From Edaphobacter aggregans (GTDB lineage: Bacteria > Acidobacteriota > Terriglobia > Terriglobales > Acidobacteriaceae): DNA of 32,000 nt. The notes under the pieces were generated by a model. It was not told the DNA's origin. It did no database searches and was given only the letters and a program-made list of their open reading frames with translations. This document shows positions 4,716-32,000 of this stretch, piece by piece. The stretch's first letter is position 1; each line of letters opens with the position of its first letter. The stretch is taken from contig NZ_RSDW01000001.1 in the NCBI RefSeq assembly GCF_003945235.1, positions 3,210,001 to 3,242,000 of the forward strand. Reading direction: 5' to 3'. Position numbers and translations under genes: made by a program.

Positions 4716-4735
4716 CACGGCAGACCCATGCCGTG
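4716..4735 (+). terminator. weak hairpin downstream of ychF
   Basis: CACGGCA-gaccca-TGCCGTG (7-bp stem) 31 nt after the ychF stop, with no clear T-tract. It contains the GTG at 4733 that the ORF track uses as the start of the next ORF, which argues against that start. Confidence 0.3.
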
Positions 4736-4798
4736 ACCACCTTTGGTGAAAGTAAAACGAACAGGTGTATCGTAGTGGCCACTGGAGGTCATGGACCC

Positions 4799-16713: not shown

Positions 16714-18240
16714 ATGCAAGTATCAGGGCCCCTTTGCAGCAAATGCACCAAATATCTCTTAGGTCTGGCTATCGGGCTCACAACCATCGCAACCGTCACC
16801 GGAATCACCGGTTGCCGCCAAGCGTCCGATGCCACCACCGTAGCCGCTAGCACCGGCCCCGACCCCGCCGACGCTAACTTAGCCCCAGTCGGCTCCAATC
16901 AGTCGCAACAGCCAGCCCCGGCTCCAGCGCAAACAAATCCAGCGCCTGCGCGCGTCTTGGGTCAGCGCATCCAGAACGAGAGCCAGCAGACCGCCGAAGA
17001 GTATCCGCAAACTGAAGCCCAGCAGCCCGAAGCTGATCAATCAGCTCAGCCTCAACCGCAAAACCCAACCTACGATAACAACGACCAAACCTACGACGAT
17101 CAGGTTGCCGCCGGCCAGGCCGCGCTCGAAGCCGACCAGCCCCCACCGCCACTCCCCGTCTACGATCAACCCCCAGCCCCCGCGCCCAACTACCTCTGGA
17201 CCCCCGGCTACTGGGGCTACGCTCCCGCCGGCTACTACTGGGTTCCCGGGGCCTGGGTCGCCGCCCCCTATTACGGGGCCCTCTGGACCCCCGGCTACTG
17301 GTTCTTCTACGGCAACCGCTACCGCTTCCACCACGGCTTCTGGGGCCCGCACATCGGCTACTACGGAGGCATCAACTACGGCTTCGGATACACCGGCTAC
17401 GGCTATCACGGCGGCTACTGGAACGGAAACCGCTTCTACTACAACCGGGCCGTCAACCGCGTCAACGTTAACAACATCACTAACGTCTACAACCGAACCG
17501 TCGTCGTCAATAACAACACCCGCGTCTCCTACAACGGAGGCAGAGGCGGCATAACCGTCCGCCCACAACCCGCTGAACTTGCAGCCATGCGCGGCCCCCG
17601 CACCCCGCCAATGACAGCCCAGCTTCAAAACCAGCGCGAGGCCGCCCAGAACCACGCGCAGTTCTACGCAGCGAACCGAGGCCGTCCCTCCATCGTGGCA
17701 TCGCCACGTCCTTTCACCGCCGACCGCGGCGTCACGCCTCAGATTCGGCCAACGCCGGTCAATCAACCTCAGCCGCACACATTCCAGCCCGCCAGTCCGC
17801 AGCCCTCACGACCGGCTCAGCCACAGATTCAGGCCTACCACTCCACCCCGCAACCAAACGTCCGTCCCGCAACTCCGGCACCGCGGCCTCAGCCCGAAAC
17901 GCGCCCTGCTCCCGCGCAGTCCTACACTCACCCAGAGCCGACCCCTGAACACCCTCACTCCGAGCTCAGAGGACCCAACCCAACCGTACGACCCACATTC
18001 AATCCCGGCATCACCGAACCAACCCCACACCCTCAACCCGAGGTACGCCCAGCCCCGCAACCAAGACCAACGCCCGAGATACGTCCGGCTCCGCAGTCCA
18101 CTCCAAGGCCCGCACCCTATGTCTCTCAGCCAAGACCAACACCGCAGCCGCAGTATCATCCTGCACCGCAACCACAATCTCATTCCGCGCCACAGCCGCA
18201 TCAAGAGCAGTCTCACGGCGACGGACACCACCCTCGCTAG
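16714..18240 (+). CDS. WxPGxW (YXWGXW)-repeat, proline-rich lipoprotein
   Basis: Lipobox TGITGC. Q/P-rich spacer. Aromatic repeats YLWTPGYWGY, YYWVPGAWV, ALWTPGYWFF and GGYWNGNRFYY. Asn-rich segment VNRVNVNNITNVYNRTVVVNNNTRV. About 170-aa Pro-rich tail (RPAPQPRPTPEIRPAPQSTPRPAP...). Confidence 0.75.
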   Translation: MQVSGPLCSKCTKYLLGLAIGLTTIATVTGITGCRQASDATTVAASTGPDPADANLAPVGSNQSQQPAPAPAQTNPAPARVLGQRIQNESQQTAEEYPQTEAQQPEADQSAQPQPQNPTYDNNDQTYDDQVAAGQAALEADQPPPPLPVYDQPPAPAPNYLWTPGYWGYAPAGYYWVPGAWVAAPYYGALWTPGYWFFYGNRYRFHHGFWGPHIGYYGGINYGFGYTGYGYHGGYWNGNRFYYNRAVNRVNVNNITNVYNRTVVVNNNTRVSYNGGRGGITVRPQPAELAAMRGPRTPPMTAQLQNQREAAQNHAQFYAANRGRPSIVASPRPFTADRGVTPQIRPTPVNQPQPHTFQPASPQPSRPAQPQIQAYHSTPQPNVRPATPAPRPQPETRPAPAQSYTHPEPTPEHPHSELRGPNPTVRPTFNPGITEPTPHPQPEVRPAPQPRPTPEIRPAPQSTPRPAPYVSQPRPTPQPQYHPAPQPQSHSAPQPHQEQSHGDGHHPR

Positions 18241-18288: not shown

Positions 18289-18870
18289 TTAATCACCATC
18301 TACCCAAACCCGATCGCAAACCTCGCACCGCCACCTATTCGTAGGCTCGATCTCTTCCAACAGCGGATCAGCCGCCCCACACCCCGGACAAGTTGGTATT
18401 TCAAAATCCCCCACTTTCTCCGACTTCCGAAATTCTTCCGAGATCGGCTGCGCAAGAACTGTGGCCGCGCGTTCCGCATCATCCGGTGCGACTACGACGC
18501 GAGGTCCTCGCATGTCGAATTTGCGAGTCGCCTGCGATATCACCTGATTGCGAATCCCCGCAGATGCAAGAGCGGCACTAGCAGCCTCAGCGTCATCGAT
18601 TTCGGCAAACTCCCAAACGCAATCGTCAGGTGCGAGTTCAGCGAACTCAAAAAGACTTACTTCCCCTTCAGCCCTAGAAGATAGGTCGACAACGGGCTTT
18701 TTCACCTCAGGCGAAACAACCAACCTCCGCCGGGCAAGCTCGCCCTTCAAAGCCTCCTGAGCAGTCTCAGTAAGATCACCCACCTGACGCACCAGCGCAA
18801 TCAACTCATCATCGCCATACTCGCCATAAAGCCGCACTAGCTCGCTGTACTGTTCCGCATCACTGATCAA
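18289..18870 (-). CDS. DUF2007-like domain protein with C-terminal zinc ribbon
   Basis: The TTG at 18868-18870 is preceded by AGGAGG (18875-18880) at 4-nt spacing; the track start (GTG at 18903) has no RBS. Contains WEFAEIDDAEAASAALASAGIRNQV...RVVVAPDDAERAATVL and CPGCG...x18...CEVC. Confidence 0.6.
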   Translation of the reverse strand: MISDAEQYSELVRLYGEYGDDELIALVRQVGDLTETAQEALKGELARRRLVVSPEVKKPVVDLSSRAEGEVSLFEFAELAPDDCVWEFAEIDDAEAASAALASAGIRNQVISQATRKFDMRGPRVVVAPDDAERAATVLAQPISEEFRKSEKVGDFEIPTCPGCGAADPLLEEIEPTNRWRCEVCDRVWVDGD

Positions 18871-19014
18871 GCGTCCTCCTAAAGTGGTAGTCCGGAGCCT
18901 CACACAATGGTCTTTTTCTTGTCAAGAGCCGGAAACCTGTAACTCCATAAAAATGATGGAGATAAGCCCTGCCGAACAATTCGACCCCATTTGTTAAACT
19001 GGATATAGAACAGA

Positions 19015-19043
19015 AACAGCCCCGTTCAAAAGACGGGGTTGTT
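19015..19043 (-). terminator. hairpin downstream of the molybdoenzyme gene
   Basis: AACAGCCCCGT-tcaaaag-ACGGGGTTGTT. On the minus-strand RNA this gives a 6-bp GC core plus 4 outer pairs (one A/C mismatch), followed by UUUCUGUUCU. Confidence 0.5.
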
Positions 19044-19163
19044 CTCTTTAACCCTAAACACCATGAAAGGAGCAAGATGCCTCATGCCAAGTCCAGACCT
19101 AAGTCGCCTATCATGAAGACTTTGGATACTTCAGTACGGGGTAGGGGATACCTCGCCAGCACG

Positions 19164-21323
19164 TCACTCCGCCAACGAAGCCTTCCGCACCTCGACCAGC
19201 GTCGAGTAGAACGTAGCCCCGCCGCCAATATCCGTCAGCCGCTCACTCGTCAGCACATTCACGTTCGCCCCATCCCGCGAGAGCTTATTCCAATCTAGCC
19301 GAGCCGCCACCACCCCGGCCCCCACATGCCCATTCACCAGCGCCCGAAGAGCAATCTTCCCGCGCCCGTTGAACACCTCGACCTCATCCCCCGCGGTGAT
19401 CCCGCGAGCGGTCGCATCCGTCGTATGCATCTCCAGCACGCCCGCCGTCCGCAACTCCATCCGCTGATGCCCTGCCAAATTCGCAAACGTCGAGTTCATA
19501 TAGTTGTCCGCCTTCCGTGCCAGCAGCTCCAGCGGAAACTTCGCTGCATCCGCCCCACCTCGTGACTCCGTAGGCGCAACAAACACCGGCACAGGCGTCA
19601 GTTCACCTCGACCGCTAGGCGTCCTGAACCACTCCGCCGTTGAAAAGGGAAGCGTCACCCCATCCTTATTCACCGGCAACTGAAGTGGAACGTGACCCTC
19701 CTGCTCCAACCTCGCCCGAGTCATCCCCGCAAACCATGGATGATCGGTCGTCAGAGCCTGATCGATCAGCTCATCCTCGCGATCGTCAAAGCACTCCTCC
19801 GCAAACCCCATCCGCCGTCCCAGCTCACCGAACACCCGCACATTGTTCCGAGCCTCACCCAGCGGCTCAATCGCCCTGTTCGAAACCTGCGCGAACAGAT
19901 GCCCATACGCCCCCTGCACATCCTTAGTCTCCAAAAAAGTAGGTGCAGGCAGCAGCACATCCGCATAGTCCGCCGTATCCGTAAAGAACTGCTCATGCAC
20001 CACCATGAACATGTCGTCGCGCCGCATCCCCTCCAGCACATCGTTCTGGTTTGGAGCCACCGCCGCCGGATTCGAGTTGTAGACAAACATCGCCTTCACC
20101 GGAGGCCCACCAACCCCAGCATCGCCCATCGTTAAAGCCTGCCCCAACTGGCTCATATTCACCGTCCGAGCAACACGCCCCAACGGACTCTTCAACATCA
20201 ACTCCGGCATCTGCAGCGCATCCGAATTAAACGGAAACGACCCAGAAGTAGAAAGCTGCAACCCACCACCAACGTACTTCCAAGCCCCCGTCAGTAGCGG
20301 CAGCATGCACACCGCACGAGCCGCCGTCCCGCCATTCTCACTCCGCTGAATCCCATAGTTCAGCCGAATCGCCGCCGGTCTACTTCCATTCCGTCCCGCC
20401 GTCGCATAAGCCCGCGCCAGCGTCACAATCGTCTGCGCCGAAATCCCAGTAATCGCCGCTACCTTCTCCGGCGAGTTCTCCGGCTTCATCGCATGAACCT
20501 TCAGCTCCTCAAACCCCGTCGTGCACTGAGCAATGTACTCGCGATCCTCCAGCCCCATGCTCAGAATCACATGCATCAACCCAAGCGCCAGTGCCGTATC
20601 CGTCCCCGGATTGATCGCCAGATGCTCATCCGCCAGCGCAGCCGTCCGCGTCTTGTACGGATCAATCACCACCAGCCGCGCGCCACTCCGCCGAGCTTCC
20701 TCGATAAATGGCCACAGATGCACATTGTTCCCGTGGATATTCGCGCCCCACGCAATCACAAGCCCCGCATGAACAAAATCCTCGGGCCGCGTCCCCAGTT
20801 TGATCCCATACACATTCTTTAGTGCCGTCCCACCCGCCTCCGCGCAGATCGTCCGTGCCAACTGCGAAGCCCCCAGCCGATGGAAGAACCGCCGGTCCAT
20901 CGACCCATACCCCAGCTGTCCAATCGTCCCGGCGTAGCTGTACGGAAGAATGCTCTCCGGCCCAAACTCCTCCGCAATCTTCTTCAGCCGAGCCGCAATC
21001 TCATCCAGAGCCTCGTCCCACGTAATCCGCTCAAAAGCCTCAGCCTCGCGACCCTTAACCGCACCGTAACCGGCTGGCCCCTTCGGCACACCAGCCTTCC
21101 GCCGCATCGGATACAGCAGCCGATCCGGCGAATAAACCCGATCCAGATACTTCGCCACCTTCCCACACAAAAATCCACGCGTCACCGGATGCGAAGGATC
21201 CCCCTGCATCTTCACCGCGCGCCCGCTCAACTCATCGACCGTCACCAGCACACCGCACGAGTCCGGGCAGTCATGCGAGCACACCGCATGCACAACCCTC
21301 GTCCCGGCCAATTGCTCGCTCAT
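19164..21323 (-). CDS. molybdopterin (bis-MGD) oxidoreductase, DMSO-reductase superfamily, cytoplasmic
   Basis: N-terminal 4Fe-4S motif CSHDCPDSCGVLV...GFLCGK with no Tat signal. MopB core (IVIWGANI-type LVIAWGANIHGNNVHLW, VVIDPYKTRTA). C-terminal molybdopterin-binding barrel (LEMHTTDATARGITAGDEVEVFNGRG). Confidence 0.9.
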   Translation of the reverse strand: MSEQLAGTRVVHAVCSHDCPDSCGVLVTVDELSGRAVKMQGDPSHPVTRGFLCGKVAKYLDRVYSPDRLLYPMRRKAGVPKGPAGYGAVKGREAEAFERITWDEALDEIAARLKKIAEEFGPESILPYSYAGTIGQLGYGSMDRRFFHRLGASQLARTICAEAGGTALKNVYGIKLGTRPEDFVHAGLVIAWGANIHGNNVHLWPFIEEARRSGARLVVIDPYKTRTAALADEHLAINPGTDTALALGLMHVILSMGLEDREYIAQCTTGFEELKVHAMKPENSPEKVAAITGISAQTIVTLARAYATAGRNGSRPAAIRLNYGIQRSENGGTAARAVCMLPLLTGAWKYVGGGLQLSTSGSFPFNSDALQMPELMLKSPLGRVARTVNMSQLGQALTMGDAGVGGPPVKAMFVYNSNPAAVAPNQNDVLEGMRRDDMFMVVHEQFFTDTADYADVLLPAPTFLETKDVQGAYGHLFAQVSNRAIEPLGEARNNVRVFGELGRRMGFAEECFDDREDELIDQALTTDHPWFAGMTRARLEQEGHVPLQLPVNKDGVTLPFSTAEWFRTPSGRGELTPVPVFVAPTESRGGADAAKFPLELLARKADNYMNSTFANLAGHQRMELRTAGVLEMHTTDATARGITAGDEVEVFNGRGKIALRALVNGHVGAGVVAARLDWNKLSRDGANVNVLTSERLTDIGGGATFYSTLVEVRKASLAE

Positions 21324-21400
21324 CCTTCAATTCTAGCCCTCGGATACGCAAAACCACTCTCGGCATTTATGCTGCATGCACCAGGCATCACGCCAACTCC

Positions 21401-22009
21401 ATGCCCGAAAAGCTCTTCCCCACCACGCGCCTCGAAGCCTTCTCCGACGGAGTCCTCGCCGTCATCATCACCATCATGGTCCTCGAGCTCAAAGTCCCCG
21501 AACAAAATGGGCCCGCCGGTCTCCTCAAAATCGCCCCCATTCTCTTCATCTACTTCCTCTCCTTCACCTTCATCGGTATCTACTGGATCAACCACCATCA
21601 CCTCATCCACCGCACCGAGCAGGCCGACCACCGCGTTCTCTACTCCAACCTCGCCTTCCTCTTCTCTGCCTCGCTCCTGCCCTTCTTCACCGCCTACGTC
21701 ATCGAAAAGCACGCTGACTCTTTCTCGGTCGCACTCTACGCCGCGTCCATGATCGTCACCGGCATCACCTTCCTCCTGCTGCGCCTCGCCGTCGGCCGCC
21801 TGCTCAAACAAACCGGAGGACTCCAGCCCGAGGACATCGCCACCGAGCGCAAGCACTACGCCAGCCTCGCTCTCTACCTCATCGCCATTCCGCTCGCACA
21901 CTTCCACCCTTACCTCGCGCTCACTGCCATCACCCTCGTCACCGTCGTCTGGATCGTCCCCACCGCCGCAACACCTGCCTGTCCCGAAGACTCCACTTCA
22001 TACCGGTAA
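21401..22009 (+). CDS. TMEM175/DUF1211-family potassium channel
   Basis: Signature RLEAFSDGVLAVIITIMVLEL at the N-terminus, followed by six hydrophobic helices. Confidence 0.85.
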   Translation: MPEKLFPTTRLEAFSDGVLAVIITIMVLELKVPEQNGPAGLLKIAPILFIYFLSFTFIGIYWINHHHLIHRTEQADHRVLYSNLAFLFSASLLPFFTAYVIEKHADSFSVALYAASMIVTGITFLLLRLAVGRLLKQTGGLQPEDIATERKHYASLALYLIAIPLAHFHPYLALTAITLVTVVWIVPTAATPACPEDSTSYR

Positions 22010-22088
22010 CTTCTTCACCCTTTGACTCTTCATCAACCCAAGCCCACACATTTGCTACAGTTGTCGATAGATCCCCTGAGGTGACCCT

Positions 22089-22562
22089 GTGCGCTTCCGC
22101 CCCGCCGTCCTCGCCCTCGTTCTGCTGCTTCCCTTTGCCACCACCTGCCGCTCGTTCGCACAGGATGACCAGCTCAAGCCCGTCCCCAAGGAGCAACTCG
22201 ACGTCATCAAGGTCCTCCTCGCCCAGGAGGCCGCCTGGAACAATGGCGATCTCGAAACCTTCACCCAGTCCTACAAAAACTCCCCCGATATCCTCTTCGT
22301 CACCACCAACATGGTCAACCGCGGATTCGAAGGCATGCTCGAAGCCTACCGCCGCAACTATCCCAACAGAGCCGCCATGGGCAACCTCAGCTTCTCCGAG
22401 CTCGAGGCCCACCCCCTCGACGAAAAATTCGCCGTAGTCCTAGGTAAATACCACCTCGACCGCAGCAAAAAAGACGGCGGCAACGCCGAAGGCCGCTTCT
22501 CCCTGGTCCTCGAAAAAACCGACAAAGGCTGGAAGATCATAGTCGACCACACGACCGGCTAG
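22089..22562 (+). CDS. secreted SnoaL-like / DUF4440 (NTF2-fold) protein
   Basis: GTG start and signal peptide MRFRPAVLALVLLLPFATTCRSFAQ. NTF2-like pattern EAAWNNGDLETF...AVVLGKYHL...GRFSLVLEKTDKGWKIIVDHT. Confidence 0.7.
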   Translation: MRFRPAVLALVLLLPFATTCRSFAQDDQLKPVPKEQLDVIKVLLAQEAAWNNGDLETFTQSYKNSPDILFVTTNMVNRGFEGMLEAYRRNYPNRAAMGNLSFSELEAHPLDEKFAVVLGKYHLDRSKKDGGNAEGRFSLVLEKTDKGWKIIVDHTTG

Positions 22563-22599
22563 GCCTACTCCTCCCAGCCCATAAGTCGTCGTTCTTGCC

Positions 22600-22695
22600 T
22601 CTCTTGCTTGTCATCACCAAAGACAATCTGCTGTTGTCATCGCTTTTGTTTGTCATTCTGACCCTGAGCGAAGCCGAAGGGGACCCTTGCCATCC
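22600..22695. repeat. REP-like intergenic element between convergent genes
   Basis: Three TTGTCAT(C/T) copies, followed by the core CCCTGAGCGAAGCCGAAGGG (22662-22681). A related core, CCCTGAGCCAGCTGAAGGG..GGAGCGAAGAATCC, occurs at 29058-29090. Confidence 0.35.
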
Positions 22696-23907
22696 CTACT
22701 TGCCCACAATCAATAAAGTAGCCCCATGCTTAGGAAGCCAATCCCTCACCACCCCTGTCCGCCGTCCAAGATCCTTCCCCTTCCAGACATCCCGCACATT
22801 CGCTCCATCCTTAAACCCAATCTGAGCCAGATCCACCGTAACCTCCCGATTACTCCAACTCCGATTGAACATCCCCACCGCCACCCGCCCACCACTCAGC
22901 GGCTTCGTCCAAACATCCAGATCCCCGCTCTGAAACAACCGATCTCCCTGCCTCCCCAGAACATCCTGATCAATCGCAATCGCGTCCTTGTTCATCAGGA
23001 TGTTCTTGTCCACCTCGCTCATCTTGCTCAAGTCATTCCCAGCCAGCAGCGGAGCAGCCAGAATCACCCACAAACTCATATGCGTCTTATATTCGTCCGT
23101 GGTCATCCCGCCATTACCCACCTCAAGCATGTCCGGATCGTTCCAATGTCCCGGCCCCGCATACTTCGCAAGCCCAGCCTGGCTGAACCCAATGGCGATC
23201 ATCCGCCCATACGTATCGTCGATATCATCCGTCGTCCGCCACATATTCGCGCCCAGCCCCGGCCCCCATGTCCACGGCTGCGCAACCCCGTACTGGCACA
23301 AGCTATAAAGTATTGGCCTTCCTGTAGCCTTCAATGCATCGCCCATCTTCCGATAAGCCGCAATCATCAGCTTATTCGCAGCCTCAGGATCATCCGGATG
23401 CTCCGCCTGCACCTTCTTCATGTTGTCTTCAAACGAGCACAGATCGTACTTCAAAAAATCCACTCCCCAGTCCGCATACATCTTCGCGTCCTGCGCCTCA
23501 TGGTCCAGACTCCCGGCATACTTACCGCACGTCTTCGCCCCCGGCGACGAATAAATCCCAAACTTCAACCCCTTCGAATGGATGTAGTCTCCCAGTGCCT
23601 TCATATCCGGAAAGCGCTTATTCGGATGCAGCACTCCCTGAGCATCCCGCTCGCCCTGCCAAGTGTCGTCGACATTCACGTAGACGTAGCCCGCATCGCG
23701 CATACCGGTGCTGACCATCATGTCCGCAGCCGAGCGAACATCGGCATCCGTCACACGCCCGGCAAAGTGATTCCAGCTGTTCCAGCCCATCGGTGGCGTA
23801 GCCGCAAGCTTCGTCTGGCCAAAAGCCGCAACGCCACACAACAAAACAGTCGTCGAAAGCACAGTAAAGATCCGCATCGCGAGTAAGCTCCGAAAGATCG
23901 ATTTCAA
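22696..23907 (-). CDS. alpha-galactosidase, glycoside hydrolase family 27 (secreted)
   Basis: PPMGWNSWNHF, YVYVNVDDTWQ, GLKFGIYSSPGAKTC, VDFLKYDLC, plus a C-terminal beta-sandwich. A signal peptide is present. Start is either TTG at 23907 or ATG at 23877 (MRIFTVLSTTVLLCGVAAFGQ). Confidence 0.9.
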   Translation of the reverse strand: MKSIFRSLLAMRIFTVLSTTVLLCGVAAFGQTKLAATPPMGWNSWNHFAGRVTDADVRSAADMMVSTGMRDAGYVYVNVDDTWQGERDAQGVLHPNKRFPDMKALGDYIHSKGLKFGIYSSPGAKTCGKYAGSLDHEAQDAKMYADWGVDFLKYDLCSFEDNMKKVQAEHPDDPEAANKLMIAAYRKMGDALKATGRPILYSLCQYGVAQPWTWGPGLGANMWRTTDDIDDTYGRMIAIGFSQAGLAKYAGPGHWNDPDMLEVGNGGMTTDEYKTHMSLWVILAAPLLAGNDLSKMSEVDKNILMNKDAIAIDQDVLGRQGDRLFQSGDLDVWTKPLSGGRVAVGMFNRSWSNREVTVDLAQIGFKDGANVRDVWKGKDLGRRTGVVRDWLPKHGATLLIVGK

Positions 23908-24040
23908 GCGCGCCTAAGCTTACCGCATTTCGCCTCTTCGCCATCGTCAAATAGCCGAAGCACACCAGCGGAGCAAATGCGCGGCCCCGTGCAAAAGCAT
24001 GGCAGCCGCGCACCTCACTAAGTCGACTTAACAGTACTGC

Positions 24041-24388
24041 TCAGGGCGTTAAGGTTAGCGTGTAGTTGTTGAAGTTCCCGGTGCAGATCTCCCGCATACC
24101 GACACGTCTCGCATCCGTGGAGCTCGTATTCGCACACCAATCGAAAGCAGTCGAAGGCACGAACTCCGTGATAGGGCCTGCCCACTGAGCGCCATTCGCC
24201 CCATGGGCATAATAGTAAGAACAAGCTTGTAGCGGGACGAGATCGCCCCCGTACACAACTTTGGATTGTCCCGGCGGAATCATCCACCAACCTTTTTTCT
24301 CCCAGTCTCCGCCATCCGGGCAATTGGGCCGACGCCACTCGAACATGGCCCAGATCGTCGTTTGAGTCCCATTAGCAATTCTGAACAT
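24041..24388 (-). CDS. DUF1036-like small protein (4 Cys, no signal peptide)
   Basis: Strong RBS GAGGAGGAAG. FRIANGTQTTIW...KKGWWMIPPGQSKVV...YYYAHGANGAQWAG...FDWC...F resembles the DUF1036 pattern (CN.T...v....GWW.i.pg.c...yy.A...g..W.G) as I remember it. Codon usage is atypical for a minus-strand gene here. Confidence 0.6.
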   Translation of the reverse strand: MFRIANGTQTTIWAMFEWRRPNCPDGGDWEKKGWWMIPPGQSKVVYGGDLVPLQACSYYYAHGANGAQWAGPITEFVPSTAFDWCANTSSTDARRVGMREICTGNFNNYTLTLTP

Positions 24389-24444
24389 GGCTCTTCCTCC
24401 TCGGGATAGTGTTCGTTGAGCACGTCTACGTATTACGACCTGAT

Positions 24445-24687
24445 TTACTTTTCCAGATCATGAGTAGGGGAACGCCTCGCGATTCCAGAACCCCCGGAGG
24501 CGTGTGGGCTGGCGCTATATTCCTCCACTCCCGGCTTGGCAGAGGAAGACCCACCACCACCGTCTGCCGAGCGGGCGGCCACCTCGGATGGTTCCGTTTC
24601 ACCAAGACCCACCACCCCGTCCGCACCCGCTTGCGATGCTTTCAGGGGGCCGGTCAGATTTTCGTACACTCGTATTTTTTCTGACAT
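24445..24687 (-). CDS. possible small disordered protein upstream of the DUF1036-like gene
   Basis: ATG with an AGGAGA RBS at about 7 nt spacing, 57 nt upstream of the next gene. The product is Gly/Ser/Ala-rich with no recognisable domain. Competing ORFs overlap it in other frames. Confidence 0.35.
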   Translation of the reverse strand: MSEKIRVYENLTGPLKASQAGADGVVGLGETEPSEVAARSADGGGGSSSAKPGVEEYSASPHASGGSGIARRSPTHDLEK

Positions 24688-24890
24688 TCTGGTTCTCCTG
24701 TCTCGGAAAAATTGATGCTGGCCGGGACGCTATACCTGCTCAAAAGTTGTGTCAACAAAGCCTGCAAGTCGCGCTGCAACGTGTTTTGAATCAGAGCACG
24801 GTGATTTTGCTCAATCGGTATCCAATGGCTTCGATACACATAAAAATCATCGTTCCGCGTTAGTATCGTTCCAGAACAAGAGAGATCTGC

Positions 24891-25847
24891 ATGAACACTT
24901 TGCGAACCGTTAGCCGCCGCCGTTTCCTTACCGCCACTGCCGTCACGGCCACTGCCGCATACATCACTCCCCGTAGTCTCTTCGCCCAGACCCAGCAACC
25001 CGAGATGGTCATCAAGGGCCGCGAGACCGCCGTCAAGGCCAAGATCACCACCCAGAAGCTCCGCGGCGACGTCAGCGTCCTCCTCGGCTCCGGAGGCAAC
25101 ATCGCCGTCCTCGCCGCCAAAGAAGGCAAGCTCCTCGTCGACGCAGGCATCTCGACCTCCCGCCCTCAAATCACCGAAGCCCTCGCCGCCATCAACGCCG
25201 ACCCCATCCGCATCCTCATCAACACCCACTGGCACTGGGACCACACCGACGGCAACGAGTGGGTCCACTCCGTCGGCGCCACCATCTGGGCCCACGAAAA
25301 CACCCGCTACCGCATGTCATCCCCGCAACACATCGACTTATTCAACGCCACCTTCCCGGCCGCGCCCGTCGGAGCCCTTCCCACCATCCTCTTCAACCCG
25401 TCCCGCACCATCAGCGACAGCATAAGCACCCTCGAGCTCTCCCACTACGATCCCGCCCACACCGACACCGACATCTCCGTCCACTTCCTCGAAGCCGACA
25501 TCCTCCACACCGGCGACACCTGGTTCAACGGCGCCTACCCCTTCATCGACTACTCCACCGGTGGCAACATCGACGGCATGATCGCCGCCACCAAGCGCAA
25601 CCTCGCCACCGGAACCAACTCGACCACCGTCATCCCCGGCCACGGTCCTGTCGGCAATAAGCAACAGCTCTCCGACACCCTCGACATGCTCTCCGCCATC
25701 CGCGACAAAGTCGCCGACCTCAAAAAACAGGGCAAATCTATCGACGAAGTCATAGCAGCCAAGCCCACCGCTCAGTTCGACGGCAAATTCTCCAAAGGCT
25801 TCGTCACTCCCGAAATGTTCACCCGCCTCGTCTATCAAGGCGTCTAG
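24891..25847 (+). CDS. Tat-exported MBL-fold metallo-hydrolase
   Basis: Twin-arginine signal SRRRFLTATAVTATAAY..LFAQ. HxHxDH motif NTHWHWDHTDGN. Downstream His/Asp ligands (PAHTDTD, HTGD, PGHG). Confidence 0.85.
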   Translation: MNTLRTVSRRRFLTATAVTATAAYITPRSLFAQTQQPEMVIKGRETAVKAKITTQKLRGDVSVLLGSGGNIAVLAAKEGKLLVDAGISTSRPQITEALAAINADPIRILINTHWHWDHTDGNEWVHSVGATIWAHENTRYRMSSPQHIDLFNATFPAAPVGALPTILFNPSRTISDSISTLELSHYDPAHTDTDISVHFLEADILHTGDTWFNGAYPFIDYSTGGNIDGMIAATKRNLATGTNSTTVIPGHGPVGNKQQLSDTLDMLSAIRDKVADLKKQGKSIDEVIAAKPTAQFDGKFSKGFVTPEMFTRLVYQGV

Positions 25848-25883
25848 ACCGCTCCGGCTCGTCGATTCCGACAGGCACGGCGA

Positions 25884-26456
25884 TCAGAAGAGGTAAGGCA
25901 CCAGGGCGGCGGTCCGATGAACATACTTGGCATACGTCTCTCCAAACTGAGAGCGCATCCACTGCTCTTCCTTGCTGAGCTTGGCCCAGAACATGACGAA
26001 GAAGAGGATGAAAACAACGAATCCGCGCACATCCGAGAGGGCGATCGCGAGACCGAGAAATCCAGTCAGTATGCCAGTGTAGATAGGGTGGCGCACGACG
26101 GCGTATGGACCCGTGGTGATCAGCTCGTGATCCTGCTTAATAGTGACCTGGCTACTCCAGTTGCGGCCAAGGTGCTCACGCGCCCAGACGGCGAAGAGAA
26201 GACCGCCGACGGTGACTGCGGCTCCTAGCCAGAAGGGCCAGAATCCAGCGCGCCAGACAGGTCGGTAAAGCCAGGGCAGAGGGATCCAGTTTGTCGTGAG
26301 GAGGATGATCGCGATGAGGATGATTAGGAGACGCAGAATGCCGGAGGAGGCCGATTCCAGGCGCTGGGTCTTCTTCGTATTGGAGGCCTTGATCCGCCAG
26401 TAGGCTAAGAAGGCAATCCAGACGGCAGGAAAGAAAAGTCTGTAGATCCAGATCAT
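25884..26456 (-). CDS. isoprenylcysteine carboxyl methyltransferase (ICMT/PEMT)-family membrane methyltransferase
   Basis: GGAGG RBS, multi-TM N-terminal half, and C-terminal signature LITTGPYAVVRHPIYTGILTGFLG...EEQWMRSQFGETYAKY. Confidence 0.85.
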   Translation of the reverse strand: MIWIYRLFFPAVWIAFLAYWRIKASNTKKTQRLESASSGILRLLIILIAIILLTTNWIPLPWLYRPVWRAGFWPFWLGAAVTVGGLLFAVWAREHLGRNWSSQVTIKQDHELITTGPYAVVRHPIYTGILTGFLGLAIALSDVRGFVVFILFFVMFWAKLSKEEQWMRSQFGETYAKYVHRTAALVPYLF

Positions 26457-26598
26457 GGGGGACCTCCGGGGCTGAAGGTTCTACGCAGGCTCGCACGGGG
26501 CAGTTCTAAAGGCGAGCAGCGTTTTCATCACGAGGCGAGCGCGTCTCCAGATTCGATCCAGCCGCCGTGAGCTTTTGACGTTCCTGGCGAGTGACCGG

Positions 26599-27210
26599 TC
26601 AACTTAATAGTGCAAACACCTGCTCGACCATTGCCGCCACAACGATCTCGTGATCGAGACCGAGCGCCTTGAGTTCGCCCTGTCCAATCGCATCATACGT
26701 TCGTTCTGTCGTGAATAGATGGATTGCGTCATCCTCTCGCCGGCCTGCCGGAATTCCATGGCGGAGACGCAGTTGAGCAATGACATCCAGTTGCCTGCGA
26801 CGTTGGCTCCGATAAAACCGCCGCACTTCCTCATCCGTGAAGACCAGCTCCATCAACGACGCTCGCAGACCGCGCCATTTCGTATGGAAATCGATGGCTA
26901 GCTCGACGAGTCTTCGTGCCGTCTCTTTCGGCTCCCTGCCGGCCGACAGCTCCGAATCGATCGCGGCCCACTCGGACGTAACCCACGTCTCATAAACAGC
27001 GAGAAAGACTTCGCGCTTGTCTTTGAAGTGCTTATAAAAAGTGCCGGTCGCGTATCCGGCCTCCTTCGCAATCCGATTCGAATCGGTCCCACGATAGCCG
27101 TCACGATTGAAAATCTCCGCTGCCGTCGCCACAAGCCGCGCGCGCGTTTGCGCTGGTGTACCCCGTCTGGGGCGTTCAACCTCGACTCTTTTCTTCCTGC
27201 CGTTGGTCAC
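26599..27210 (-). CDS. TetR/AcrR-family transcriptional regulator
   Basis: HTH TRARLVATAAEIFNRDGYRGTDSNRIAKEAGYATGTFYKHFKDKREVF. Divergent from the DoxX gene. Confidence 0.85.
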   Translation of the reverse strand: MTNGRKKRVEVERPRRGTPAQTRARLVATAAEIFNRDGYRGTDSNRIAKEAGYATGTFYKHFKDKREVFLAVYETWVTSEWAAIDSELSAGREPKETARRLVELAIDFHTKWRGLRASLMELVFTDEEVRRFYRSQRRRQLDVIAQLRLRHGIPAGRREDDAIHLFTTERTYDAIGQGELKALGLDHEIVVAAMVEQVFALLS

Positions 27211-27246
27211 GAGAATATTGACACGCTCAAGTGCTGATGATAGTCA

Positions 27247-27263
27247 TATCACTCATAGTGATA
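27247..27263. promoter_or_regulatory. inverted repeat in the TetR/DoxX divergent region (candidate operator)
   Basis: TATCACT-cat-AGTGATA at 27247-27263, 24 nt downstream of a TTGACA hexamer (27218-27223). I could not identify a convincing -10 box. Confidence 0.4.
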
Positions 27264-27302
27264 CAAACGTCACTAACGCTTGCCCCACAAAAGAGGCTAT
27301 TC

Positions 27303-27719
27303 ATGCGCATACTCTTCCCTATCGCAAGAATCATGTTTTCATTCATCTTCCTTATTGCAGCTCCACGTCATTTCTCAAGCGAGGGAATAGGACACGCTGC
27401 AAGTTTGGGCGTTCCTCTCTCGAACCTGCTCGTTCCCCTGTCCGGAGTCATGGCGATTGTCGGCGGATTGAGCATCGTCTTCGGTTACAAAGCACGCTGG
27501 GGAGCTTGGATCTTAGTCGCGTTCCTCGTGCCAGTCACATGGACGATGCACGCATACTGGAAACAGACTGATCCGGCTGTGATTCACGTACAACAAGCAA
27601 TGTTTGCCAAAAATCTGTCCATGCTCGGTGCAGCACTTCTGATTACGCAGTTCGGAGCCGGTCCAATCAGCATCGACGATCTGAAGAAGGATCGCGAATC
27701 TGTCGCCGAGACTTGTTGA
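27303..27719 (+). CDS. DoxX-family membrane protein
   Basis: The ATG at 27303 has an AAGAGG RBS. Four TM helices and the DoxX-type segment HAYWKQTDPAVIHVQQAMFAKNLSMLGAALLI. Confidence 0.8.
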   Translation: MRILFPIARIMFSFIFLIAAPRHFSSEGIGHAASLGVPLSNLLVPLSGVMAIVGGLSIVFGYKARWGAWILVAFLVPVTWTMHAYWKQTDPAVIHVQQAMFAKNLSMLGAALLITQFGAGPISIDDLKKDRESVAETC

Positions 27720-27775
27720 AGGCGTGGTTTAGACCCACAAAAACCTGTCGCAGGCGGGTCATTGCAAGCCCGGTG

Positions 27776-27815
27776 CCCCATCTTAGCGCCCGGCCTTTCG
27801 GGCGCTAAGATGGGG
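27776..27815. repeat. perfect 17-bp-stem GC-rich hairpin between convergent DoxX and PilZ genes (REP-like or bidirectional terminator)
   Basis: CCCCATCTTAGCGCCCG-gccttt-CGGGCGCTAAGATGGGG at 27776-27815. No strong T-tract on either side. Confidence 0.55.
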
Positions 27816-27843
27816 CTTTGCAGGATGCTCACATCGAGACGCG

Positions 27844-28206
27844 TTACCGCCCCACTCCCCGCTGCATCTGCCGAATCAGCCCTTCCAGCCCCGTCTGCAT
27901 ATAAGCACTCATCTCCCCGAACAAGAACCCCGCTCCAACTCCCGGCCGCACGGCCCGCACCGTAGCCTGCACACGCATCGTCAGACCCCCCGCCCGAAAC
28001 ACCATCTCCACCGGAGTCCCCGCCTCCAGCATCAGCCGAGCCCGCGTCTCAATAAAGCACCCCGACAAGCTGATATCCACCGTGTTGCCACGAAACAGCA
28101 GCCTGCCATCACTCACCATCACCTCGGCGTCGCCATGGACGGCGTAGCGCTCATGCCGCCGCCTCTCGCGAACCTCACCGCCATCCTGCGCCACCATCAG
28201 ACCCAT
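27844..28206 (-). CDS. PilZ-domain protein (c-di-GMP receptor type)
   Basis: RxxxR motif (RRRHERY) and D/NxSxxG motif (DISLSGCF) at the canonical spacing. 120 aa, single domain. Confidence 0.8.
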   Translation of the reverse strand: MGLMVAQDGGEVRERRRHERYAVHGDAEVMVSDGRLLFRGNTVDISLSGCFIETRARLMLEAGTPVEMVFRAGGLTMRVQATVRAVRPGVGAGFLFGEMSAYMQTGLEGLIRQMQRGVGR

Positions 28207-28273
28207 AGCGTCCTCAGAGGCAAGCCAAAGAAACCCGCCAAATCCTTCATCGGCAGCCCGCCGAAAACCTTCA

Positions 28274-28310
28274 CCAAAGCGAAAGGGGCTGAGCCAAAAG
28301 GCCCAACCCC
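28274..28310 (-). terminator. intrinsic terminator after frr
   Basis: The minus-strand RNA GGGGUUGGGCC-uuuu-GGCUCAGCCCC forms an 11-bp stem including two G.U pairs, followed by UUUCGCUUUGG. It lies 34 nt after the frr stop. Confidence 0.6.
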
Positions 28311-28343
28311 TCGAAAATCGTCCTTCGAAAAGACCGCAGCACC

Positions 28344-28928
28344 TCAGACGGTCATCACTTCTTTCTCTTTAGCCTTGAACAGCTCCTCGACCCGCTTGAT
28401 CTCCGCATCCGTCAGCTGCTGAACCTCTTCGTTCGCCCGCTTCTCATCATCAGCCGAAATCAGCTTATCCTTCGCCGCCTTCTTGATCTGCTCATTCCCA
28501 TCCCGGCGGATATTCCGGATCGCCGTCTTGTGGTCTTCCATCGTCTTGTTCAGCTGCTTGACCACCTCCTTGCGCCGCTCCTCCGTCATCGGAGGCACAG
28601 GCACCCGGATTACCTTCCCATCCGTCATCGGATTCAGCCCGGTCCCCGAAGTCCGAATCGCCTTCTCAATCGCCGACACCATTCCGGCGTCATAAGGTGA
28701 CACCAGGATCAACGTAGGTTCCGGCGTACTCACCTGTCCCATCTGCGCCACAGGCGTGTCCGTCCCGTAATAATCCACCTTTACATGGTCGAGCATATGC
28801 ACATTCGCGCGCCCTGTCCGCGCACTCAGCAGATGCGCTCTGAAGTCCTCCACCGACTTCTCCATACGCGCCTTCAACTCCCGGTGGGCGCCCTTCAACG
28901 CTTCCATATTTGCCATCGCTGATGCCAT
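28344..28928 (-). CDS. frr: ribosome recycling factor
   Basis: Canonical RRF sequence: RMEKSVEDFRAHLLSARTGRANVHMLDHVKVDYYG..TPVAQMGQVS..LILVSPYD...IEKAI..SGTGLNP..DG..IRVP.PP.TEERRKE..K. Confidence 0.95.
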   Translation of the reverse strand: MASAMANMEALKGAHRELKARMEKSVEDFRAHLLSARTGRANVHMLDHVKVDYYGTDTPVAQMGQVSTPEPTLILVSPYDAGMVSAIEKAIRTSGTGLNPMTDGKVIRVPVPPMTEERRKEVVKQLNKTMEDHKTAIRNIRRDGNEQIKKAAKDKLISADDEKRANEEVQQLTDAEIKRVEELFKAKEKEVMTV

Positions 28929-29137
28929 AAACTATGTCCTCACTGCGCCGATGCGCCAAGGCAAATTCTAATTCACTGACGAAAACCGTGCCCGTAATCG
29001 AACACACAGCCAACCGTTAAACCGCGCTCCTTAAAGCGTCCCTCATCCTTACCCTGGCCCTGAGCCAGCTGAAGGGCGGAGCGAAGAATCCCCGCATTTT
29101 GCTCGAAGCGCCTCGCTCCATCCATCAACAAACCGCT

Positions 29138-29941
29138 CTAACGCACCACAGGCAGCGTCTTCGAGATCGCCGTAGCATCAGGACTGCACGCAGGATGACC
29201 CCATCCACTCGCACTCACGCCAATCATCACTCCCGGCGCCGTCATAATGTCATACACAATATTGTCCGGACGGCTCGAATCCGGCCCAACTCCCCCCGGC
29301 ACATAATCCAGCTTCAGCGTATTCCTCGTCCGCCACGCAATATTGTGGTCCGCGCAAGACGAGTCCCCGCTCACGCCCAGTCCGCCGATAAGCGTTCCCT
29401 GCGCGTTATACAGAGCCAGCCCGCCGCCAAACACATTCACGCCGCCAATCCTGTTCCCAACCATCGGGTCATCCGACTGGCCATAATCTGAAGGATCGCC
29501 GCCATACGCCACCTTCGTATCCACCGGATTGCTCGCCTGCAGCCCGAACAAACTTCCTCCCGGCTGCGTCGCGCTGTAAAGGTCCGCCGTCGACAACGCC
29601 AGCTTCGGCAAGCTGAACGCATTCGCCGTATTCGCCTTCTGCGCCGAAATCACCCTGCTCCCCGGCCATTGCGACCCGCGATCCGCGCCTGTAAACGCCA
29701 CCGCGCACACAATCCCATCGCGATTCACAACCGTCCCCCACATATCCAGATTGAACCCGCCGTTGCTCTGCATCCGCGCCGAAATCAGCGCCGCCCGCAA
29801 CGCCGCATAAGAAGGCAGCCCTTTGCACGCCGACCCTGAATTGTTGTTATTGCCATCGGCAGCCTGTACAACCGCACCACTGCGAGCCAGCAAACACACC
29901 GCCACCAACACGGTCATCTTGATGAATCCGTTTTTGCTCAT
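29138..29941 (-). CDS. secreted GlcG/HbpS-like (DUF336) haem-binding-family protein
   Basis: The ATG at 29939-29941 gives the signal peptide MSKNGFIKMTVLVAVCLLARSGAVVQA. DUF336-type core NRDGIVCAVAFTG...SRVISAQKANTANAF...GGLALYNAQGTLIGGLGVSGDSSCADHNIA. The track ORF start (30094) adds 51 unlikely codons. Confidence 0.75.
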   Translation of the reverse strand: MSKNGFIKMTVLVAVCLLARSGAVVQAADGNNNNSGSACKGLPSYAALRAALISARMQSNGGFNLDMWGTVVNRDGIVCAVAFTGADRGSQWPGSRVISAQKANTANAFSLPKLALSTADLYSATQPGGSLFGLQASNPVDTKVAYGGDPSDYGQSDDPMVGNRIGGVNVFGGGLALYNAQGTLIGGLGVSGDSSCADHNIAWRTRNTLKLDYVPGGVGPDSSRPDNIVYDIMTAPGVMIGVSASGWGHPACSPDATAISKTLPVVR

Positions 29942-30141
29942 AGTGCTTCCTCTCATAAAAATCAGATTGGAGCCCAGAATGTCAGGGTGACCCGGAACGC
30001 CAGATAAAGGCCCGGAAACGTGCGAAATTCTACCACCCGCAAGGCAACACTCGTCGGCTGCACCCCGCACACCGGTCGACCACACCACCCGCATCTAAAG
30101 CATCAAACCTGAAATACCGGGCCAAAAAGGAGAGATGTCGC

Positions 30142-31014
30142 ATGTACGCAGTCATGGGAATCACCGGGCAAGTAGGATCAGCCGTCGCCGACAACCTCCT
30201 CGCCCACGGCAAGCAGGTTCGCGCCATCGTCCGCAACCCCGAAAAAGCCGCCACTTGGAAATCCCGCGGTGTCGAGCTAGCCATAGCCGACTACGACAAC
30301 CCCACCGCGCTCGAAGCCGCCTTCCGCAACGTCGAAGCCGCCTTCGTCATGATCCCGCCCTACTTCGCCCCCTCACCCGACCTCCGCGAACCCCTCGCCA
30401 CCATCGCCGCCATCCGCACCGCGCTCGACCGCGCCCGCCCCGCCAAGGCCGTCTATCTCTCCTCCATCGGAGCCCAGCAAACCAGCGGCATCGGCCTCAT
30501 TACCGTCCTGCACATCCTCGAAGAGCAGTTCGGCTCACTGCTCATCCCCGGAGCCTTCCTCCGCGCCGGCTGGTTCATGGAAAACTGCCTCTGGGACGTA
30601 GCCCCCGCACGCGAGCAGGGGAAACTCTTCTCCTACCTCCAGCCCCTCGACCATAAATTCCCCCTCGTCGCCACCGCAGACATCGGCCGGGTAGGCGCGG
30701 AAGCCCTCCTCCAAACCTGGCAAGGCAATCGCTACATCGAAGTCGCTGGCCCCGCCCGCTACTCACCCCGGGACATCGCCGCCGCCTTCACCGCCGCCCT
30801 CAACCGCAATGTCGAAGCAGTAGCCGTCCCCCGGGACACATGGGAAAGCAACTTCATCTCCCAGGGCACGCCCGAAGACCGCACACCACGACGCATCGAG
30901 ATGATCGACGCCTTCAACTCCGGCTGGATCGACTTTCCCGCCCCCGGAACCGAACACATCCAAGGCACCACCACTCTGAAAACAGTCATCGACCAGCTAG
31001 TAGCAAACAACTAA
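30142..31014 (+). CDS. NmrA-family NAD(P)-binding protein (atypical SDR)
   Basis: Rossmann start MYAVMGITGQVGSAVADNLLAHGKQVRAIVRNPEKA and an NmrA-like length and C-terminal region. Confidence 0.85.
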   Translation: MYAVMGITGQVGSAVADNLLAHGKQVRAIVRNPEKAATWKSRGVELAIADYDNPTALEAAFRNVEAAFVMIPPYFAPSPDLREPLATIAAIRTALDRARPAKAVYLSSIGAQQTSGIGLITVLHILEEQFGSLLIPGAFLRAGWFMENCLWDVAPAREQGKLFSYLQPLDHKFPLVATADIGRVGAEALLQTWQGNRYIEVAGPARYSPRDIAAAFTAALNRNVEAVAVPRDTWESNFISQGTPEDRTPRRIEMIDAFNSGWIDFPAPGTEHIQGTTTLKTVIDQLVANN

Positions 31015-31021
31015 CCAGCCT

Positions 31022-31837
31022 TCAGGCAGAAGGCTGGGTGGCTCTAGAGAGTGCAACCGACGCCTCACTCGTCAACACGCGGAACGTGAATGTCTCCTGC
31101 AGATACAGCCGAACCATACTATCCGTGTGGCTCAGATAGCCAATCGACACATCCTGCCCAATATTGAGCTCGAAATCGCCACCGCGCGTAGTCAGCACAA
31201 ACGCCCCATCGATAGCAGGAGCCCAAATAATATCGCCGTCGACGATGCGTTTAACGTGCTCCAGTATGGGATACCCGTGATCGCGAGTCTCTGCCAGCTC
31301 CGTATATTCATTCGCACCCAGCAGAACCGAATAAGGCCCATTCACACCCACTAGCCGCAACTGGCTCAACGCCCGTGCCACAGCATCCGGATAGTCGCGC
31401 ACATCCGTTGGCAGCGGCATGATCGGATTGCTCGTACCTTCCCGAATGCCCTGAATATTCGCCGCGCCGTAACCATCAAAGATGGCCCTGTCCTCAGCGA
31501 AGGCAATCTTCTTGGCAGCATCCTTCGCAGGCTGCCAGTCGGAGTCATCCGAGCCGCGCTCCACATCATCAATCGCCTGACGAGTGAGTTCAAAAGGAAC
31601 CCGCAGTTCTACCAGAGGCTTCACCTCACGCTGGTTGGCAACGATGTCCGCAGCTGGCGGCGAGATCGTCAATAAATGTCCCGTGGCAACTCCCGGCAGA
31701 TCAATTCCACTCGGGGACGGCACATCGACCACGCGTCGGCCCGCGAGATAGCGCTTCAGCGTCCGCGTCGTCTCCTCTTCGATCTGCGCCCAAGCGGCGT
31801 CCGAAATCGGTGCCAAATCCCGATGAAGATTATTCAT
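31022..31837 (-). CDS. family 1 encapsulin nanocompartment shell protein (Linocin_M18 / HK97 fold)
   Basis: 271 aa, colinear with characterised family-1 encapsulins as I recall them: HRDLAPISDAAWAQIEEE...YLAGRRVVDV, ...LVELRVPF, ...DAAKKIAFAEDRAIFDG, ...GPYSVLLG, ...GYPILEHV, ...TTRGGDFELNIGQDVSIGY......VRLYLQETFTFRVL. Confidence 0.92.
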   Translation of the reverse strand: MNNLHRDLAPISDAAWAQIEEETTRTLKRYLAGRRVVDVPSPSGIDLPGVATGHLLTISPPAADIVANQREVKPLVELRVPFELTRQAIDDVERGSDDSDWQPAKDAAKKIAFAEDRAIFDGYGAANIQGIREGTSNPIMPLPTDVRDYPDAVARALSQLRLVGVNGPYSVLLGANEYTELAETRDHGYPILEHVKRIVDGDIIWAPAIDGAFVLTTRGGDFELNIGQDVSIGYLSHTDSMVRLYLQETFTFRVLTSEASVALSRATQPSA

Positions 31838-32000
31838 GTTTAACTCCTTTGAGCGATCCTATTCCAAGTGATGTGTCCCGCATGGATGATGCAGGTGAAG
31901 CGTCGGATGATGCGGGCGACTCGTCGGAAGGAGCAGCCAGAGCATCGATTGCCGCAGGCTCTGCATCCCCAACGTCTTCAAGAAACGTCGCAGACGGCGC
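31830..32000 (-). CDS. encapsulin cargo protein, C-terminal 56 codons only (5' part beyond the right window edge); DyP-type peroxidase is the most likely identity but is unverified
   Basis: My own minus-strand translation gives APSATFLEDVGDAEPAAIDALAAPSDESPASSDASPASSMRDTSLGIGSLKGVKHE*. This is a flexible A/P/S/D/E linker followed by an SLGIGSLKG cargo-loading-peptide motif. The stop (31830-31832) overlaps the encapsulin ATG (31835-31837). It is absent from the ORF track because the start lies outside the window. Confidence 0.75.
   Translation of the reverse strand, partial: APSATFLEDVGDAEPAAIDALAAPSDESPASSDASPASSMRDTSLGIGSLKGVKHE

Follow-up and report, generated by a model that had tools for sequence, protein, structure and literature searches.

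A predicted DyP-encapsulin operon at the end of a 32,000-nucleotide stretch of an Acidobacteriaceae chromosome

We analysed a stretch of 32,000 nucleotides from the chromosome of Edaphobacter aggregans (contig NZ_RSDW01000001.1, positions 3,210,001 to 3,242,000 of the forward strand; called the window below), whose last 979 nucleotides hold two overlapping genes on the minus strand. The first of these is the 3' end of a cargo gene that is cut by the window edge (31830-32000), and the second, immediately downstream, is a complete gene for an encapsulin shell protein (31022-31837). With high confidence, we read this end of the window as the 3' part of a two-gene operon of an Acidobacteriaceae chromosome, in which a dye-decolorizing (DyP-type) peroxidase would be packaged by a family-1 encapsulin.

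Two sets of sequences were used for comparison. The first consists of the best 80 of at least 575 stretches with a shell homologue found in a scan of species-representative genomes: their shells are 76-89% identical to that of the window, nearly all of them come from Acidobacteriaceae or other Terriglobia, and a few come from Alphaproteobacteria (Methylocella, Bradyrhizobium). Shell comparisons were made across 81 sequences. The second set comprises two metagenome contigs, L081 and L082, which were found with a 21-nt query from the gene junction and which we regard as the same population as the window; an exact metagenome search with a 36-nt query from the variable linker of the cargo gene gave zero matches. 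Both contigs reach past the window edge. L081 is 96% identical in nucleotide sequence to window positions 18686-32000, over 13.3 kb, and L082 is 98.5% identical to the window end, with a locus of 1,001 bases that covers 234 residues of the upstream protein and stops short of its N domain.

The shell gene (31022-31837, minus strand) starts with ATG and encodes 271 residues. The first-pass annotation, made from the letters of the window, had described its product as a family-1 encapsulin along the full length, and the profile searches bear this out: Pfam Linocin_M18 (PF04454) matches over the whole profile (positions 1-253 of 253, 3.6e-96, 321.7 bits against a cutoff of 24.3), and the NCBIfam equivalog NF041155 (encap_f1) scores 348 bits against a cutoff of 100. 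The closest PDB match is 9i8d (9.3e-119), with a gapless printed alignment over residues 1-264. The mycobacterial Cfp29 and Brevibacterium linens Linocin M18 shells (7boj, 6i9g) match at 2.5e-116 (1-264 against 1-264), the Klebsiella pneumoniae shell 8u50 at 2.7e-108 (1-263 against 1-263), and the T=1 shell of Thermotoga maritima at about 1e-40. In contrast, the T=3 shell EncA of Myxococcus xanthus and the T=4 shell 6nj8 match at only about 1e-11. Because all of the strong PDB matches (1e-40 to 1e-119) are T=1 shells, we infer that the product would form a T=1 particle of 60 subunits. An HK97-type fold is strongly implied by the alignment to the solved HK97-fold structure 9i8d, together with the matches to 7boj and 8u50. 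The shell is identical to the L081 copy at 270 of its 271 residues, the single change being S43G; a look-up of the exact protein gave no record.

Since encapsulins share the HK97 fold with the capsids of tailed phages, and the two are often confused (PMC8346489), the gene could also be read as a prophage major capsid gene or as a decaying phage remnant. We give this reading almost no credence. The equivalog score and the matches at 1e-108 to 1e-119 to solved T=1 encapsulins argue against it, as does the cargo gene with a targeting peptide directly upstream. None of the 27 open reading frames (ORFs) scanned in the 31 kb on one side of the pair, which are housekeeping or regulatory genes or match nothing, is phage-like (no terminase, portal, protease or tail domain), the side beyond position 32000 holds a DyP gene in both L081 and L082, and the related loci conserve the DyP-shell pair only.

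The minus strand from 32000 to 31830 translates as APSATFLEDVGDAEPAAIDALAAPSDESPASSDASPASSMRDTSLGIGSLKGVKHE followed by a stop, that is, as 56 codons that stay free of stops up to the window edge and constitute the end of the truncated cargo gene. This translation equals the string in the first-pass annotation, which had recognised an edge-truncated cargo with a flexible linker and a C-terminal targeting peptide of the SLGIGSLKG type. Three parts can be distinguished. The first five residues, APSAT (31986-32000, minus strand), close the C-terminal domain of the DyP: the Dyp_perox_C envelope of L082 stops at residue 183 of 234, and the tail seen in the window starts at residue 179. Next comes a linker of about 38 residues (FLEDVGDAEP...ASSMRDT, 31872-31985, minus strand), which is rich in Ala, Ser, Pro and acidic residues and is the least conserved stretch among the relatives. 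The third part is the core of the targeting peptide, SLGIGSLK (31848-31871, minus strand), with GVKHE behind it, so that the tail ends in ...MRDTSLGIGSLKGVKHE and the segment SLGIGSLKGVKHE, placed after the linker, closes the open cargo frame.

This peptide is the only one of its kind in the window: scanning all six frames from end to end for targeting-peptide-like motifs gave this one real site, 5 residues ahead of a stop, and no second cargo. The layout is also general. A cargo ORF that adjoins the shell gene upstream and terminates in a C-terminal targeting peptide, here ...TSLGIGSLKGVKHE, is found in 78 of the 80 relatives, where the C-terminal end takes the form [ST]LxIGSL[KR]G plus 1-5 further residues (SLGIGSLKG itself in 42). 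In some relatives the peptide at the DyP C-terminus is arranged in tandem or partly duplicated, with ends reading ...SLGIGSLKTGSLNIGSLKGEQNE (L039), ...SLRIGSLHIGSLKGESNE (L022) and ...PLKTGSLNIGSLKGE (L044); such duplicated tags could give a higher avidity for the shell.

What does the truncated gene encode? The peptide alone does not discriminate between cargo families, and Pfam is silent on the lone 56-residue fragment. The first-pass annotation had pointed out that related motifs occur on ferritin-like cargo and had left the identity of the cargo open, a caution that was justified because a ferritin-like cargo of Haliangium ochraceum ends in GSLGIGSLR (PMC10960027). On this ground the gene might specify a ferritin-like protein, a haemerythrin or another non-DyP family-1 cargo bearing the same type of targeting peptide. 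The sequence beyond the window edge argues otherwise. L081 and L082 carry a 56-residue tail identical to that of the window, and in both its frame runs on upstream as ...FGTYFIGYSRSPR...LFFAPSATFLEDV..., a DyP stretch that scores 4e-60 against Dyp_perox_C in L082. The L082 protein has the GXXDG motif as GFVDG (in GFVDGTENP), as well as the segments ...TNAHSAL... and ...ILRDNMPFG...; the residues of these motifs would be the equivalents of Asp153, His226, Arg244 and Asn246 of Rhodococcus jostii DypB.

The relatives lead to the same answer. The start of the window fragment, APSATFLEDV, aligns to the end of the DyP fold (...LFFAPSATFLE/D...) in the proteins encoded upstream of related shells. A DyP-homologous ORF ends at the shell start in 78 of the 80 loci, the remaining two having a short or broken upstream ORF, and no other cargo family, four-helix-bundle proteins included, was found among them. 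Dyp_perox_N and Dyp_perox_C are both present in all six of the relatives' DyPs scanned with Pfam, and TIGR01413 of NCBIfam is matched by both of the two that were tested. The DyP of a representative relative, L002, matches DyPs in the PDB that are associated with encapsulins or labelled as the encapsulated subgroup at 1e-115 to 1e-128. A protein search with the 234 residues of the L082 DyP found at least 8,000 relatives at E <= 1e-30 and no identical entry. The closest proteins reach 91% identity and have both Dyp_perox_N and Dyp_perox_C, and the databases already hold homologues from cultured Acidobacteriaceae, labelled as DyP-type or iron-dependent peroxidases. Because the identical tail continues into Dyp_perox_C in the two contigs and a DyP lies upstream in 78 of the 80 loci, the cargo is, on this sequence evidence, a DyP-type peroxidase. 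This answers the question of the upstream ORF that had been left to profile searches, and a cargo of any other family is effectively refuted.

To what extent does the shell retain the groove that would receive this peptide? In K. pneumoniae, cryo-electron microscopy and mutagenesis resolved the peptide SGSLNIGSLK bound to the shell, with Leu, Ile and Leu in three hydrophobic pockets and Lys salt-bridged to Asp38; Arg34, Asp229 and Ile230 mattered for loading, with Thr217 as a possible alternative partner (PMC10960027). Work on the enterobacterial system added Arg35 and Ser231 as contacts and described a disordered linker of 40 residues (PMC12140327). The Leu, Ile, Leu and Lys of the window peptide are in register with SGSLNIGSLK, and the window shell carries, at the positions published as contacts, R34, R35, D38, T217, D229, V230 and S231, all of them identical in the Klebsiella and enterobacterial shells apart from position 230, which is Val here and Ile there. 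This numbering presumes the gapless alignment to 9i8d and the match of residues 1-263 to 1-263 of 8u50. R34, D38 and D229 are invariant in all 81 shells.

The two genes are joined by an overlap in which the cargo stop and the shell start share 8 nt (ATGAATAA, 31830-31837, minus strand), as the first-pass annotation had stated. In the junction AAACATGAATAA the cargo frame reads AAA CAT GAA TAA and the shell frame ATG AAT AAT, placing the cargo stop at 31832-31830 and the shell ATG at 31837-31835. Of the 80 related loci, 72 share this 8-nt overlap and 7 have one of 4 nt. A Shine-Dalgarno-like AGGAG (31844-31848, minus strand) lies 6 nt 5' of the shell ATG, within the Lys-Gly-Val codons of the targeting peptide region; AGGAG, GGAGA or a similar sequence is present within 18 nt 5' of the shell start in 79 of the 80 loci. 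Because the Lys-Gly codons (AAAGGAG) double as the Shine-Dalgarno sequence of the shell gene, the end of the tag is under a double constraint, coding and regulatory. We also observed that the overlap ATGAATAA fixes the last two residues of the cargo as His/Asp-Glu and the start of the shell as Met-Asn-Asn (31830-31850, minus strand).

With an overlap of 8 nt and an AGGAG within the codons of the peptide, translation of the shell gene is probably coupled to that of the cargo gene. The earlier proposal of translational coupling is thus supported, while its further proposal of a fixed stoichiometry over-reads the junction, because published loading amounts to only one to three DyP hexamers per 60-subunit shell (PMC10960027).

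The operon could nevertheless be present and yield no functional compartment, either as a silent or decaying copy or with the DyP free in the cytoplasm. Its promoter lies outside the window, and the DyP ORF is truncated or frameshifted in 5 of the 80 relatives. The window itself looks different. Both of its frames are intact, and the peptide and the pocket residues are fully conserved. Over the 979-nt operon the window and L081 differ at 13 positions, 11 of which are third codon positions, and the proteins differ by a single residue, in the shell, with the tail unchanged; this pattern indicates purifying selection on the operon. The broken relatives are metagenome-assembled genomes, in which frameshifts are presumably often assembly errors. 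An operon that yields no functional compartment is very unlikely. The five loci concerned are L023, L040, L046, L047 and L055: two of them, L047 and L055, have the peptide out of frame, and the DyP and shell frames of L055 are fused into a single ORF of 808 residues. Their broken DyP ORFs are either assembly errors or decaying copies.

A mechanism can be proposed by homology with the mycobacterial, Brevibacterium and Klebsiella systems. The upstream gene would encode a B-type, haem-containing DyP, whose body lies beyond base 32000 and which would end in the disordered linker of about 38 residues and SLGIGSLK, and the downstream gene would supply the family-1 shell protein of HK97 fold. Sixty shell subunits are expected to form, by self-assembly, an icosahedral T=1 particle of about 24 nm. 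During assembly the Leu, Ile and Leu of the peptide would enter a hydrophobic groove on the luminal side of a protomer, between the N-terminal helix and the P-domain, where Arg34, Asp38, Asp229 and Ser231 would hold the peptide backbone and the Lys, so that one to a few DyP hexamers would be trapped inside the shell. The shell pores would admit H2O2 and small co-substrates, and the enclosed DyP would reduce peroxide and oxidise organic co-substrates. The likely benefit would be protection against oxidative stress at low pH, which would fit an acidophilic host of soil or peat.

Several points weigh against the identification of a working DyP encapsulin. The catalytic part of the cargo lies beyond the window, and its identity is taken from near-identical contigs and homologues. 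Particle assembly, T number, cargo loading, haem binding and peroxidase activity are likewise argued from homology. Even model organisms have yet to yield a settled native co-substrate or physiological role for DyP encapsulins (PMC10960027, PMC8346489). Position 230 of the shell is Val and not the Ile of K. pneumoniae; Val is the commonest residue at this position (66 of the 81 shells), and the contact made there in K. pneumoniae is ascribed to backbone hydrogen bonds (PMC10960027). Finally, an AlphaFold2 model of a shell-plus-tail fusion, run on the single sequence without an alignment, had a mean predicted local distance difference test score (pLDDT) of 32 and a predicted template modelling score (pTM) of 0.18, and is unusable for docking.

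It is instructive to compare the predicted operon with the systems already solved. The DyP encapsulins of K. pneumoniae and other enterobacteria (PDB 8U50 and 8U51 for the shell, 8U4Z for the DyP, and 9E5E; PMC10960027, PMC12140327) have the same gene pair, a B-type DyP followed by a T=1 family-1 shell, and the DyP of L002 matches 8U4Z at 1.1e-128 with the peptide region included. The disordered linker of the enterobacterial DyP, about 40 residues long (PMC12140327), is comparable to the Ser-, Ala-, Pro- and acidic-rich linker of the window. The C-terminal peptides differ slightly, SGSLNIGSLK in Klebsiella against TSLGIGSLKG in the window: because Gly replaces Asn, the Asn-Ser hydrogen bond within the Klebsiella peptide cannot form in the window peptide. 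The hosts differ as well, an enterobacterial pathogen there and a soil member of the Acidobacteriaceae here, and the enterobacterial version is reported to be transposon-associated (PMC12140327), whereas no such association was seen within the window.

The mycobacterial Cfp29-DyP systems (Mycobacterium smegmatis 7BOJ and 7BOK, Mycobacterium tuberculosis 7P1T and 7PHM) and B. linens Linocin M18 (6I9G) are among the closest solved shells to that of the window, and the M. smegmatis DyP (7BOK) matches the L002 DyP over nearly its full length (4.5e-125). These are T=1 particles that enclose DyP hexamers and are reported to play a part in resisting oxidative stress (PMC8635971, PMC8072242). Their hosts belong to a different phylum from that of the window, and the mycobacterial operons often carry accessory genes, with a shell reported to load further cargos (PMC8346489), while the type found in the window has the two-gene core only across the 80 loci. 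The nearest precedent for a role in a soil decomposer is DypB of the actinobacterium R. jostii RHA1 (PDB 3QNR), which matches the L002 DyP at 7.7e-116 over residues 12-354, C-terminal tail included; it is cited in PMC8346489 (its refs 26 and 27) as a peroxidase that oxidises lignin and, in vitro, assembles with its encapsulin.

The rest of the window adds little to this account. On the 3' side of the shell gene, a terminator scan found a hairpin with a 9-bp stem and a 5-nt loop, followed by TTAGTTGTTT (31005-31037, hairpin 31037-31015, minus strand). The stop codon of the shell gene falls within it, and it is located in the 7-nt gap ahead of a convergent NmrA-like gene; RNA folding shows the hairpin stem, with z = -2.05 for its 66-nt context. 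By its match to the consensus, and by that only, we regard it as a candidate terminator.

Beyond the NmrA-like gene, which is on the plus strand, lies an HbpS-like gene (29138-30094, minus strand) listed with 318 residues, with the HbpS-like domain at residues 121-253 (1.8e-10) and no NCBIfam match. Within the ORF, a Met precedes a stretch that resembles a signal peptide (MSKNGFIKMTVLVAVCLLARSGAVVQA...), and the true start is probably about 50 codons downstream of the listed one. Its position two genes away had been taken as weak support for a haem or oxidative-stress theme. The location is right; the support is not there, as none of the 80 related loci carries an HbpS-like, NmrA-like, RRF, PilZ, DoxX or TetR neighbour in its 6-kb flanks. 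We tried the HbpS-like and NmrA-like genes as functional partners of the operon and ruled them out on this ground. Clustering of the flanking ORFs showed that only the DyP-shell pair is conserved, no other neighbour family occurring in more than 9 of the 80 loci, which indicates that the cassette is a self-contained module in variable surroundings.

The other genes of the window are those of an ordinary chromosome, including YchF, RelA/SpoT, aconitase, RRF, EamA, an MFS transporter, a molybdopterin oxidoreductase, an alpha-galactosidase and a metallo-beta-lactamase-fold protein. The window contains no tRNA and no Rfam family at gathering score. In a protein of 320 residues (414-1376, plus strand), a Haem_bd domain (3.3e-36) is joined to one of the cytochrome P460 type (9.4e-34). 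Long ORFs of 467, 508, 204, 195 and 157 residues have no Pfam match at 1e-5 (4733-6136, plus; 16714-18240, plus; 18289-18903, minus; 21320-22412, minus); some of these may be spurious, the skewed composition favouring such frames, and others may be genes as yet uncharacterised. This composition is strongly asymmetric between the strands: over 1-32000 there are 11,344 C against 7,156 G, an overall GC skew of -0.226, with all 2-kb bins between -0.05 and -0.36, while related Acidobacteriaceae loci have absolute skews of 0 to 0.2. The skew is seen in ORFs of both strands and so is no effect of the coding strand; it has the look of a replication-strand skew of unusual strength, the plus strand being C-rich.

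How new, then, is the predicted operon? Taken together with the near-identical contigs and the relatives, the locus has the sequence-level features of the DyP encapsulin class, a kind already known and represented by several solved structures. DyP systems form the largest class among family-1 encapsulins (1,505 of 2,383), 962 of them in Actinobacteria and 519 in Proteobacteria (PMC8346489); since these two phyla account for 1,481 of the 1,505, Acidobacteria are barely represented in the published census. A search of a full-text library found no experimental study of an acidobacterial encapsulin. The suggestion that encapsulins of such a soil lineage are experimentally uncharacterised thus appears right for the lineage, though not for the type of system, which is among the best characterised (PMC8346489). 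What is new is the host lineage; the other differences are in minor residues, namely Gly for Asn in the peptide and Val230 for Ile in the shell.

Several alphaproteobacterial shells are 76-78% identical to that of the window (L042, from Methylocella silvestris TVC; L050, from Bradyrhizobium sp. Tv2a-2; L051, L062 and L067), which makes these loci as close as many of the Acidobacteriaceae shells (77-89%); the 8-nt overlap and the tail (...GSLKGDKRHE) are shared too. Such closeness, with the same overlap and tail, suggests transfer of the two-gene cassette across phyla among acid-soil bacteria.

For genome annotation the gain is small, as a standard pipeline names the shell through the NCBIfam equivalog and the cargo once the contig is extended. 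What the analysis documents is that the archetypal DyP-encapsulin cassette is common in Acidobacteriaceae, with peptide, pocket and overlapping genes as in the solved systems. A shell-cargo pair from an acidophile could serve encapsulin engineering as an acid-stable variant, and it could be the point of departure for work on the function of DyP encapsulins in soil decomposers. A bolder possibility, which we consider unlikely on balance, is that DyP encapsulins are a lineage-wide trait of acid-soil and peat Acidobacteriaceae and act, beyond peroxide detoxification, as a nanoreactor, stable in acid, for the oxidation of aromatics from lignin or humic matter (or of Mn2+). If true, this would equip Acidobacteria with a defined means of oxidation in the turnover of soil carbon.

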